From: Deltaproteobacteria bacterium
GTDB taxonomy: Bacteria > Myxococcota > Kuafuiibacteriia > Kuafuiibacteriales > Kuafuiibacteriaceae
Assembly: GCA_040218735.1 (NCBI GenBank)
Contig: JAVJQW010000012.1
Coordinates: 46,880-110,879, forward strand
DNA: 64,000 bases
Reading direction: 5' to 3'
In this document: positions 49,138 through 55,164 of the stretch, piece after piece
Layout of the letters: each line of letters opens with the position of its first letter
Numbering within the stretch: position 1 is the stretch's first letter
Position numbers and translations under genes: made by a program
The notes under the pieces: model-generated
The model's input: the letters and a program-made list of their open reading frames with translations, nothing else
What the model was told of the DNA's origin: nothing
The model's database searches: none

Positions 49138-50175
49138 CTAGAACGGCTTCTTCTTGCGGGGTGGGCGGCGCACGCCGCCTTTGCCCGAGAGCCGCTTCGC
49201 GCGGTCCATGTACAGCGCCGTCATCGCGTCGAGGTCCTTCTTCACGATCTCGGCGCCGAGCGTCCGCAGGATCTTCGAGCGGTCCATCTTCTCGTCGATC
49301 GTGATGAGCCCCATCATCGCGTAGAACTTCGCGAGCTTGCTGGTCTCGCGCTTCATCACCGCGTCGAACGTCATGCGCAGCTTGTCGCGGGACATCGTCC
49401 CGAGGTCTTCCTTCCGCAGCTGAACGATCGCGAGCAACGCCCCACACGCGCGCTCGCGCTGCGACGCCACGCCCTCGAAGATCACGTGGGACAGCGGCTC
49501 CATCGAACGGAGCGCACCGATCCGCCCGAGCGCGTCCGAAACGTCTTCGGCGAGCTCGAACTGCTCGATCATGTCGTGCAGCTTCGGGAGCGCGTCGTCG
49601 TCGCCGATCTCACCGAGCGCCCAGACGATCATGTCCGCGCACACCATGTTGTCGGGGCGAAGCTGGAGGAGCATCGGCTGCACGGCCGGCGCGTAGCGGC
49701 CGAAGCCCATGAGCATCGCCGACCGACGGACCGCCGCCGGGTCCTCGCTCGCGAGGAAGTTCAGGTTGTGGCGAAGGAAGTCTTCGTCGCCGGCGAGCGC
49801 CAACGCCTTCGCCGCGAGGGTCGTGACGGCCTCGTCCTTCGTCGCCGACATCACGCGCCGGACGACGACGAGCACCTCTTCTTCCGGCGCCCCCCAACGA
49901 TCCGTGATGCGGGCGATCGCGTCCAGGAGGAGCGCCTGATCCTGGGGCTCCGCCTCCGCGTCCAGCAGCTCGGCGAGCTCGGCGAACGACGTCGGCCCCG
50001 CCATGATCCGCTCGCGCAGCGGGTGCACCAGCGTCTGGGGGAGGAGCGAAGGCGAGATCTTTCCGAGCGCCCCGGCGACCTGCTCGATGAACTTGATCTG
50101 CTCGGGGTCCTCGAGGCCGAGGATGTCGCCCATGAGACCCGCCGGAGCCGGCAGGCCGGGATCGTCGAACTTCAT
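49138..50175 (-). CDS. HEAT/ARM-like repeat hypothetical protein
   Basis: 345 aa, helical repeat character, no signal peptide. Confidence 0.55.
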   Translation of the reverse strand: MKFDDPGLPAPAGLMGDILGLEDPEQIKFIEQVAGALGKISPSLLPQTLVHPLRERIMAGPTSFAELAELLDAEAEPQDQALLLDAIARITDRWGAPEEEVLVVVRRVMSATKDEAVTTLAAKALALAGDEDFLRHNLNFLASEDPAAVRRSAMLMGFGRYAPAVQPMLLQLRPDNMVCADMIVWALGEIGDDDALPKLHDMIEQFELAEDVSDALGRIGALRSMEPLSHVIFEGVASQRERACGALLAIVQLRKEDLGTMSRDKLRMTFDAVMKRETSKLAKFYAMMGLITIDEKMDRSKILRTLGAEIVKKDLDAMTALYMDRAKRLSGKGGVRRPPRKKKPF

Positions 50176-50197
50176 CGACTCGAGGTTAGCGTGAGAC

Positions 50198-53263: not shown

Positions 53264-53430
53264 GGTCTATCTCCCCCGGGCTGGGCCGCGCGTCAGCGGT
53301 TCCCTGCACCGATGCGTGGCTTATCGGCGATTGTGTGGTTTTGTTGCGCACACCGGCACAGATCTGCCTCCCGATGACGCGCGATGCGTCAAAGAGGCTC
53401 AAAATCGACGAATTCCGAGGCGATGGCCCG

Positions 53431-55164
53431 TCAGAGGCCGGCGAAGATCCCGGTGGAGAGGCGCAGCTCGATCGGGGCATCTACTTGAGTCGAACCCCTA
53501 TCAAACGTCACGGTTCCCCCGCTGAAGAACCCCACCAGGTTCAGCTGCTGACCGATCTGCGGTGTGTACAGGAGCGCCCCGCGCGCCGCGACGCCGTCCA
53601 GCACAACGGTGGCCCCCGGCTGGACCAAGTCGGGATCGACGACCACGTACGTCACCGCGAGCGCCTGGCCCCCGAACAGCAGCCCCCCGAGGAACACCGC
53701 CTCACCCGCGTCGTCCGGGCCCTGACCGAACCCCGCCGACGCTCCGACGTTGTCCGGCATGATCGGATTCCCATTCACCTCACCGGACGCGACGCCCGTC
53801 CCGGTCATGAAGACGTTCTGCGCGGGGTGGCTCCCCCAGGTCGTGGTCAGCGTCGCCTCGACGCGCCCGATCTCCTCGAAGCAGAAGCTGTCCCGGAGCG
53901 GCAGCGGCCACGCCAATCCTCCTTGCATGATCTCCGCGTCGAGCGCCGCGCGGCGCCCTTCGACGAACCGCCGCACCGCCTGCACGCCGTCCTCGAAAGG
54001 CTGCGGCGCGTAGACGAACGGGCGAATGATGTCCGCCGTCGTCGTCACGCCCGTGAGCAGCTCGTCCTCCGGCCAGGCCTCGGCGAGCACGAACCGCAGC
54101 GCGTCCAGGTACCGCTGCCGTCCTTCGGGGTGATCGTAGAGTCGTCGAGCCAACAGCCCATTCGCGTAGACCGCGGCCGGCAGGTTCGGGTCACCGCCCT
54201 GCCCCAACACCCCGTCGACGCCCCACGGCATGAACGTGAAGCGCTCCTGCCCTGGCTCGACGTAGATGTAGAAGTTGTTCGTGTTGCCCGCGTAGCCGTC
54301 CCAGTGAGCGATGAGCACCTCCGTCGCCCAGAACACCAGGTAGGCGTCGAGGTCGATGACCTCCGCGAGCGCCGCGAGGAGCTGGTCGTCCGGGACCTCG
54401 AGCGCCTCGACCACCGCGGCGATCCGCGCGCGGTCGTCCGGGTCCATGCGGTTCGTCTTCTTCTCGAGGGTGCCGGTCCACCCCTCGCGGAAGTCGCTGA
54501 GCGTCCCTTCGTAGAGGAGGCCTTCGTCGTCGGAGAAGTGCTCGCGCAGGTACGGCTTCTTCACCGGCTCGACGTGCGCGTACACGCCGAGGTCCTCGCC
54601 GTTCACCGTCACGTGCGCAAAGTTGCAGCGCGGCGCCGGCACTCCGACGCGCGCGAACGTCGCGTACGCGATGCACTGCCGGATGATCGCCGGATCCTGC
54701 CGCGCGTTGTTGAAGGTCATGCGGATGAGCCCGCCGAGGTGCTGCCCGATGACGTACTCGTCCATCTTCACCTTCAACGAAGGACGCAGCTCGCTGAGGC
54801 TCCCGATGAAGCCCTTCTTGCGGACGCCGACGTTCTCGACCGTCTCCCCGTCCACCGTGACCGTGCCCGTGAAGTAGGTGTACGGCGAAGGGAACGGCTC
54901 CGCCTGGCAGTCGCCCGCGAGGAGGCTGACGATCTCGCGCGTCTGCATCCTCAGCGCGTCCCAGTCCTCGGGCGCGAGGCGGATGTCGACCTCCAGGAGG
55001 CGATCGGGGGTGTAATACGGCGCGGGATCCGGACGCGGCGGGGGGAGCTGCCCGGCGTCGCGCGTGACGTCGGGACCGCCGTCGCGCGGCGTGTCGAGCG
55101 GGTCACCTTCGTCCGTACCGCAGGCGACGAGGCCGGCGACGATGAGGAGGGCGAGCCGCTTCAC
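53431..55164 (-). CDS. CotH-family lipoprotein (CotH kinase-like)
   Basis: Lipobox MKRLALLIVAGLVACG. The CotH core is AHWDGYAGNTNNFYIYVEPGQERFTFMPWGVDGVLG. Confidence 0.65.
   Translation of the reverse strand: MKRLALLIVAGLVACGTDEGDPLDTPRDGGPDVTRDAGQLPPPRPDPAPYYTPDRLLEVDIRLAPEDWDALRMQTREIVSLLAGDCQAEPFPSPYTYFTGTVTVDGETVENVGVRKKGFIGSLSELRPSLKVKMDEYVIGQHLGGLIRMTFNNARQDPAIIRQCIAYATFARVGVPAPRCNFAHVTVNGEDLGVYAHVEPVKKPYLREHFSDDEGLLYEGTLSDFREGWTGTLEKKTNRMDPDDRARIAAVVEALEVPDDQLLAALAEVIDLDAYLVFWATEVLIAHWDGYAGNTNNFYIYVEPGQERFTFMPWGVDGVLGQGGDPNLPAAVYANGLLARRLYDHPEGRQRYLDALRFVLAEAWPEDELLTGVTTTADIIRPFVYAPQPFEDGVQAVRRFVEGRRAALDAEIMQGGLAWPLPLRDSFCFEEIGRVEATLTTTWGSHPAQNVFMTGTGVASGEVNGNPIMPDNVGASAGFGQGPDDAGEAVFLGGLLFGGQALAVTYVVVDPDLVQPGATVVLDGVAARGALLYTPQIGQQLNLVGFFSGGTVTFDRGSTQVDAPIELRLSTGIFAGL

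Follow-up and report, generated by a model that had tools for sequence, protein, structure and literature searches.

A leaderless PPC-domain protein from Myxococcota with a predicted GP42-like papain-fold core and a conserved HEAT-repeat neighbour

The locus analyzed here lies in a 64,000-nucleotide (nt) stretch of a Deltaproteobacteria bacterium assigned to Myxococcota (assembly GCA_040218735.1, contig JAVJQW010000012.1, positions 46,880 to 110,879), hereafter called the window, to which all positions refer. Three genes follow one another on the minus strand: a CotH-family lipoprotein gene (53431..55164, 577 amino acids (aa), from the open reading frame (ORF) list and Pfam), the gene of a large leaderless multidomain protein (50198..53263, 1021 aa) and a gene for a HEAT-repeat protein (49138..50175, 345 aa). 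They are separated by 167 and 22 nt, respectively, in agreement with the co-directional arrangement and short gaps of an initial annotation made from the sequence alone, which gave the first gap as 168 nt. The start of the large ORF was defined by a GGGGGAG Shine-Dalgarno sequence followed by N8 and ATG, with no in-frame start codon upstream, and homologues all begin with MPxI in an alignment of 11 sequences. As an upstream start is impossible and no hydrophobic segment is present (maximum Kyte-Doolittle 19-residue mean 0.93), the protein is indeed leaderless, as proposed. Searches of all three proteins against NCBIfam, PHROGs and PADLOC added nothing to the Pfam results, no Rfam family was matched in the region, and no sigma-70 or terminator consensus was detected there above expectation.

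In databases, the large protein is identified by its tail. It is 100% identical to a protein from a metagenome-assembled genome (MAG) named by NCBI only 'PPC domain-containing protein', and its sole Pfam match was PPC (PF04151, 44.7 bits for a cut-off of 25.9), at the C-terminus. Pfam, NCBIfam, PHROGs and PADLOC gave no match on the N-terminal 800 aa, of which the first 750 were initially described as belonging to no recognisable family. This description no longer holds, since a distant match to the papain-like fold of GP42 and of the TGase_elicitor family was found, and the core of the large protein is very likely a remote homologue of GP42.

Several lines of comparison led to the same family, most of them based on an alignment of 40 diverse members that share 17-38% identity with the window protein. 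When the corresponding profile (A3) was run with hmmsearch against all PDB sequences, the top match was 3tw5_A (E 0.0042). In this alignment, the family motif DTxxGxxVWNG pairs with GP42 DVTAGAEVWNQPVRGFKVYE, its VWNG with VWNQPVRGFKVYE, which we take to be the Pep-13 elicitor, and PDFxW with HPDFLW. Profile-profile comparison by hhalign against 58 bacterial TGase_elicitor sequences, an alignment built from 79 metagenomic GP42 homologues obtained by a single-sequence scan, paired query residues 363-432 with template positions 211-275 (E 9.3e-5) and residues 610-729 with positions 285-444 (E 7.9e-4). Both segments are collinear; they adjoin in the template and are about 180 residues apart in the query, where a beta-rich insert lies between them. 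A smaller TGase_elicitor alignment gave an E value of 4e-5 and a probability of 70%, and the controls reached 0.04 at best for a reversed template and 0.29-0.81 for column-shuffled templates. Likewise, a complete GP42 homologue of bacterial origin, encoded on a plasmid of Vibrio owensii and showing WMGLCHGWAAAS, was aligned by hhalign with the Cys region of the family (A4) at E 3e-4, WWGHCH pairing with WMGLCHGW and T.FVG.RN with TKFIGGRCN. In the fold search, GP42 (3TW5) was the best match, a papain-like calpain core being also among the matches, and the modelled core fold superposes on 3TW5. The four motifs WxGxC, FxGxR, VWN and PDFxW follow one another in the order known from GP42.

Other searches were less informative. 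The Pfam profile PF16683 did not match the window protein at E<=0.1, which is below the gathering threshold, and matched only two of the 40 members (best E 0.024); the large protein is outside PF16683 as currently defined. Runs of phmmer and hmmsearch against PDB with the single sequence and with an 11-sequence profile returned the PPC domain only, a TetR match in these runs being dismissed as chance. Foldseek against PDB gave nothing significant, the Cys-region profile alone had no match in PDB, and nothing but short Phytophthora fragments was retrieved with a GP42 fragment as query.

GP42, which belongs to the papain-like enzymes, has an unusual 'CH' motif; its His is paired with an Asn on beta-2 or an Asp in a helix (PMC10318531). 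The window protein displays W-x-G-x-C at the N-terminus of a helix (residues 367-377). Translation puts this WAGHCD segment, already pointed out in the initial annotation, at residues 364-369 (W364-A-G-H-C368-D369; 52157..52174, minus strand), and the 40-member alignment designates C368 as the predicted nucleophile. In the 11-sequence alignment it is part of an invariant W-x-x-W-A-G-H-C-D-x-K-A block, found together with several further invariant motifs. W364 is present in 38 of the 40 members, G366 in 39 and C368 in 38; V647-W648-N649 and D715-F716 are kept in 37-38, and R428 is conserved. The position after the Cys is occupied by D (18/40), H (17/40) or N (4/40), and the position before it by His in 29/40. 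A His placed directly after the Cys, as in GP42, is not found in the window protein, where C368 is followed by D369 and the His is at 367. Cys368, at the helix N-terminus, would attack either a protein-bound Gln side chain, as in a transglutaminase or deamidase, or a peptide bond, as in a protease, and a thioester would be formed. His367 and/or Asp369, together with Asn649 on the VWN strand, may fill the roles of the GP42 'CH' His and its Asn/Asp partner.

It is possible that the GP42 match is spurious, the N-terminal 800 aa representing a novel fold, for instance of a structural or binding protein, in which the Cys has a structural role. The missing Pfam match on these 800 aa and the low model confidence at the motif loops are in line with this explanation, which we consider unlikely: the fold search, the profile search against PDB and the profile-profile comparison, which used a separately built alignment, independently picked the same family from large libraries, the matched motifs coincide with the positions conserved most strongly in both families and keep the same order, and the hhalign controls scored far lower. 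Additionally, the rare C-H signature of GP42 is present in 17 of the 40 members.

The conserved module extends well beyond the matched core. An AlphaFold2 model of residues 1-800 (mean predicted local distance difference test, pLDDT, 77.5; predicted template modelling score 0.66) opens with a helical N-terminus and small beta units; a helix then starts at residue 367, and a long stretch of beta structure only, at about 450-610, leads into a mixed alpha/beta C-terminal part. The following parts, all encoded on the minus strand, could be delimited. Residues 1-235 (52559..53263) form a family-specific, mostly alpha-helical N-terminus with an invariant R115 and a clade-conserved SFGHDAxFxHxxE, and residues 236-344 (52232..52558) a small beta-rich region in which E239 and R341 are invariant. 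The first half of the GP42-like papain-fold core covers residues 345-432 (51968..52231), with DW...WxGHC[D/H], the helix and FxGxR. It is followed by the beta-rich insert of about 180 residues (433-609; 51437..51967), predicted to be all-beta with pLDDT 80-93 and bearing a near-invariant N494-P495. The second half of the core (610-730; 51074..51436) holds E614, D618, DTxxGxxVWNG with VWNG at 647-650 (coordinates verified by translation) and PDFxW at 713-718. C-terminal helices and strands at residues 731-800 (50864..51073; R737-G738; pLDDT 85-95) complete the 800-aa module and are shared by all family members, including those devoid of PPC.

The two C-terminal PPC modules of the initial annotation were recovered, as PF04151 was matched in two stretches, domain 1 at residues 829-893 (50585..50779, minus strand) and domain 2 at residues ~927-1017 (50213..50485, minus strand; PDB 2luw, E 0.003). 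Three of the 40 members, including P0029 and P0031, have a proprotein-convertase P-domain at the C-terminus instead of PPC, and a clade of shorter proteins (hereafter the short clade) has neither. As defined in Pfam, the two modules are characteristic of secreted proteases, and in this family they probably bind the target or a matrix. No signal peptide was found in any family member inspected, and the large protein may act in the cytoplasm or after non-classical export.

The family proved to be of limited size and distribution. A word-indexed search of 5.8 billion proteins yielded 11 clusters and a profile search no further ones. Exhaustive scanning of 1.84 billion representatives with HMMER gave 133 clusters at 50% identity, of which 65 had E<1e-30, and when one genome per GTDB species was scanned, 47 loci were obtained. 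Carriers with sensible record names were Myxococcota, among them Enhygromyxa salina (a member of Nannocystales), Paraliomyxa miuraensis, Nannocystis and Nannocystaceae MAGs. The family is thus rare and almost exclusive to Nannocystales (Myxococcota). Several of the MAG records carrying short-clade homologues (L020, L022, L026, L028, L029, L031-L034, L040 and L050) were titled 'uncultured Rickettsiales' or 'Enterobacterales'. They are probably mislabelled bins, because all named isolates and most MAGs with the family are Myxococcota.

The 345-aa product of the 3' gene was assigned to HEAT repeats on matches barely above the Pfam cut-offs (HEAT_2, 29.0 bits for 27.7; HEAT_PBS, 25.4 for 20.9) and on matches over residues 108-250 to alphaRep proteins, which represent a PBS-HEAT consensus, down to E 7.6e-22. 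It has neither a signal peptide nor a hydrophobic segment. An orthologue lies directly 3' of the large gene at loci L001, L002/3, L004, L011 and L012, and the gap, 22 nt in the window, is about 10 nt in orthologues of ~35% identity. In a neighbour-joining tree, both branches arising from the deepest split within the PPC-bearing clade (~35% identity) included loci with the HEAT gene. Since the linkage spans this split, the large gene and the HEAT gene constitute a unit conserved within the PPC clade; both genes are probably co-transcribed. A conserved-neighbour search by all-against-all clustering over 57 loci found no widespread partner except the HEAT gene. Because it is inherited with the PPC-bearing form, the HEAT protein is most likely a binding partner of the enzyme and would serve as its inhibitor, chaperone or adaptor. 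Its C-terminus (49138-49200) is a strongly basic tail, ...KRLSGKGGVRRPPRKKKPF, and such tails were also seen in HEAT orthologues of 37% identity (...KRGPGKSGKRRARPIV; ...TKRQTKPKK).

Some other genes recur near the family. Ser/Thr kinases were discarded as partners, being ubiquitous in myxobacteria, as were AhpC, FadB, thiolase, SEC-C and ATE/Bpt, each confined to one shallow subclade and none present in the window. Within the 35%-identity subclade, the HEAT gene is followed by an aminoacyl-tRNA-protein transferase gene with ATE_N and ATE_C domains (L001 9507-10163, L002 5614-6291, L012 ~14267-14851). Such transferases are enzymes of the N-degron pathway. After it, these three loci share the same set of kinase and short-chain dehydrogenase/reductase genes. 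The transferase gene has no counterpart in the window. At L004, five genes (two FG-GAP_2 genes, an extracytoplasmic function sigma factor gene and two unknowns; 9904-15113) separate the HEAT gene from rsfS; in the window, both converge over 96 nt (49042-49137), which marks this site as an indel hot spot with respect to L004.

Upstream of the large gene, a conserved non-coding block lies 38-87 nt 5' of the ATG (53301..53350, minus strand) and includes the inverted repeat CCGAT-N9-ATCGG (53309-53327). Its sequence, TGTGCGCAAC-AAAC-ACA...CCGATAAGCnnnGCATCGGTGCAGG, is near-invariant in the window, L004 and L011, other parts of the spacer being variable, and searches of more distant loci did not recover it. 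Just 5' of its ribosome-binding site, the L013-15 subclade has another conserved element, AAGGGTGATTGACTGCGG. The conservation of the block is consistent with a candidate promoter or operator proper to the large-gene/HEAT pair; a sigma-54 promoter was ruled out, the -24 GG being absent from the window copy.

A leaderless enzyme with a small partner gene raises the question of toxicity, and myxobacteria kill prey by contact. The large protein could be a papain-fold toxin or predation effector secreted by a non-classical route, with the HEAT protein as its immunity protein or secretion chaperone. This family without leaders has domains typical of extracellular proteases next to a papain-fold catalytic domain, its C-terminal modules differ among clades, the partner lies directly 3' after a gap of only 10-22 nt, and the window protein is acidic (pI 4.8) with few cysteines. 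Several observations argue against such a pair. PADLOC matched none of the three proteins and Pfam detected no toxin-delivery domain in them; no secretion-system genes are conserved near family loci, and the HEAT neighbour is absent from most of these. The catalytic module is central and not C-terminal. The neighbourhood in the window is of the housekeeping type (dapB-dapA-lysA, rsfS), its dapB-dapA-lysA flank is kept in L004, and the codons are optimal for the host. Other loci differ in context and lack features of mobile elements or toxin cassettes. An effector pair is therefore improbable, and we retain the view of the large protein as an enzyme with a HEAT partner.

The unusual composition reported for the large protein was confirmed, with 6.1% Lys and 5.5% Asn compared with 1-3% Lys in most ORFs of the window, but the foreign origin derived from it was not. 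The G+C content at third codon positions (GC3) is 0.97, at the top of the 39 window ORFs, and compared with thirteen other window genes the large gene shows a higher use of AAG (0.97 vs 0.93), AAC (1.00 vs 0.90), GAC (0.98 vs 0.85) and GAG (0.93 vs 0.79). Synonymous choices are thus those of the host itself, applied more strictly than in neighbouring genes. Local G+C is 0.65-0.67 against ~0.69, a dip that arises at the first two codon positions. In every PPC-bearing orthologue, to as low as 35% identity, Lys amounts to ~6% and Asn to 4-6%, compared with ~2% Lys in the short clade. Because this richness is common to these orthologues and both GC3 and codon choices are those of the host, it is a selected property of the PPC-bearing clade at the protein level and not a trace of foreign DNA. 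The large gene is native to its host and, judging from its codon bias, probably well expressed.

The upstream gene contains the NNFYIYV...FMPWGVDG core noted initially and belongs to the CotH family (PF08757, 125.7 bits for a cut-off of 23.8, E 3.6e-36, residues 124-385), with similarity to B. cereus CotH 5jd9 (E 4e-11). Its lipobox LVAC with Cys15 predicts an exported lipoprotein. Mutation of either Asp228 or Asp251 inactivates B. subtilis CotH (PMC7821199). Judging from alignment only, the equivalent of D228 is kept in the window protein (HWDGY), and the residue aligned with D251 is a Gly, PWGVDG instead of PWDYD, in both the window and L004, with an Asp two residues later. The PWGVDG segment lies at 54214-54231 (residues ~312-317), and such a sequence may represent a variant active site or a pseudokinase.

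Outside the window, L004 and L011 (~76% identity) are the only loci at which the CotH gene adjoins the large gene. No CotH gene was found within 10 kb of the large-gene homologue at six orthologous loci of 33-35% identity or at ~45 short-clade loci, and the upstream gene of the 33-35% orthologues was ychF, a divergent secreted ORF or another gene. A conserved linkage of the kind that joins cotH to the genes of its substrates, as with cotG and cotB, was thus not observed outside L004 and L011. The dapB-dapA-lysA flank of the window is shared by L004; L011 is too short to show its flank. Just past lysA, a 579-aa ORF on the plus strand (58279-60018) has a HELGH zinc-metalloprotease-like motif and a high Asn content (6.6%).

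Bacillus spore coats employ both CotH and a leaderless transglutaminase, Tgl, and the order to which the host belongs forms myxospores. By analogy, the three proteins could make up one module, CotH phosphorylating the large protein or all three contributing to a spore or surface layer. The co-directional genes, between which no terminator-like site was detected, and the conservation of the trio in two relatives of ~76% identity would fit this proposal, which is nevertheless highly improbable. The absence of CotH from the six 33-35% loci and the ~45 short-clade loci argues against it, and plain shared ancestry accounts for the trio in L004, where the flanking dapB-dapA-lysA genes are kept as well. 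In addition, CotH is predicted to be exported as a lipoprotein whereas the large and HEAT proteins are devoid of export signals, the separately conserved non-coding block precedes the large gene, the large protein lacks Ser-rich repeats of the CotB/CotG type, and a Gly is aligned with the essential Asp251. Because its adjacency is limited to L004 and L011, CotH appears, from these comparisons, as a lineage-specific neighbour unrelated to the large-gene/HEAT pair and linked to it by local gene order only.

The functional link between CotH and the large protein suggested in the initial annotation can hence not be maintained. More generally, the findings named there as refuting its proposal were each obtained in part: a family match for the N-terminal region, typical codon usage and a restricted synteny of CotH. 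The CotH, large and HEAT genes are not supported as one unit; the adjacency of the large and HEAT genes survives and is evolutionarily conserved.

On balance, we consider it rather probable that the large protein belongs to the papain-like superfamily as a cysteine-dependent enzyme, with Phytophthora GP42 as its closest characterized relative, acting as a transglutaminase, deamidase or protease with a HEAT partner. Reaction type, residue roles, HEAT function, co-transcription and site of action are what we infer from the comparisons made above. Several observations weigh against this assignment. Both structure models are least confident at the active-site loops, and the window protein has H-C-D and not the C-H of GP42. 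The family lacks signal peptides, whereas the Vibrio homologue WP_233902700 has a signal-like sequence at its N-terminus and GP42 of Phytophthora resides in the cell wall; it would also be odd for a cytoplasmic protein to carry PPC domains. Furthermore, the HEAT gene is not essential to the enzyme family, because it is absent beside three PPC-clade orthologues (the L013-15 subclade) and all short-clade members.

A more far-reaching proposal, which is tentative and rather doubtful in its full extent, is that an undescribed family centred on Nannocystales has re-engineered the GP42 core by splitting it, replacing Cys-His by His-Cys-Asp, dispensing with a leader and optimizing its codons. In one clade, it would have become a two-protein system with a HEAT regulator, which could for example cross-link or process proteins of myxospores, of the fruiting-body matrix or of prey after non-classical export. 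Pep-13 derives from GP42-type transglutaminases, and these enzymes are known mainly as the source of this plant immune elicitor. A leaderless, rearranged myxobacterial branch would widen the known distribution of this papain-like lineage, and its natural variants (C-H, H-C-D, C-N) would make the odd catalytic center of GP42 available for mechanistic study. It would also give a first functional handle on a protein for which databases offer no label beyond its PPC tail. The idea of a foreign origin of the large protein should be dropped, as should the CotH connection.

Comparison with known systems shows which features are shared. The Bacillus CotH/Tgl spore-coat pair is matched in that a CotH-family gene lies here too beside a gene for a leaderless enzyme of a transglutaminase-type family, in a spore-forming lineage. 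However, Tgl and GP42 belong to different families, and the window CotH differs from that of Bacillus by its lipoprotein nature, its non-conserved adjacency and the Gly at the Asp251 position. Secreted bacterial proteases have the same C-terminal PPC and P-domain modules that are exchanged between clades of the window family, but the catalytic domain is here neither a subtilisin nor a metalloprotease, and both signal peptide and propeptide are missing.

The closest parallels are with GP42 itself and its bacterial homologues. GP42 of Phytophthora sojae (PDB 3TW5, PF16683), the Ca2+-dependent transglutaminase from which Pep-13 originates, shares with the window protein the fold and WxGxC at the helix N-terminus, and FxGxR, VWN (the start of Pep-13) and PDFxW are common to both. 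Identity is only ~12%, and in the window protein the core is split by the beta domain of ~180 residues, preceded by ~340 family-specific residues and followed by the PPC domains, and VWNGA lacks the Pro of the VWNQP found in Pep-13 of GP42. Both oomycetes and marine Vibrio are known sources of GP42-type transglutaminases, according to the title of Reiss et al. (2011) as given in PMC10318531. In our data, the Vibrio owensii protein WP_233902700, annotated as 'ricin-type beta-trefoil lectin domain protein', and ~79 metagenomic relatives displayed the same four motifs in the same order. These bacterial homologues are built on a compact domain of ~390 residues with strict WMGxCHGWA and VWNQP and no insert, and the C-terminal binding module is a ricin lectin where the window protein has PPC. 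The window family stands apart from them in being leaderless, in carrying the insertion and in its near-exclusive occurrence among Nannocystales.

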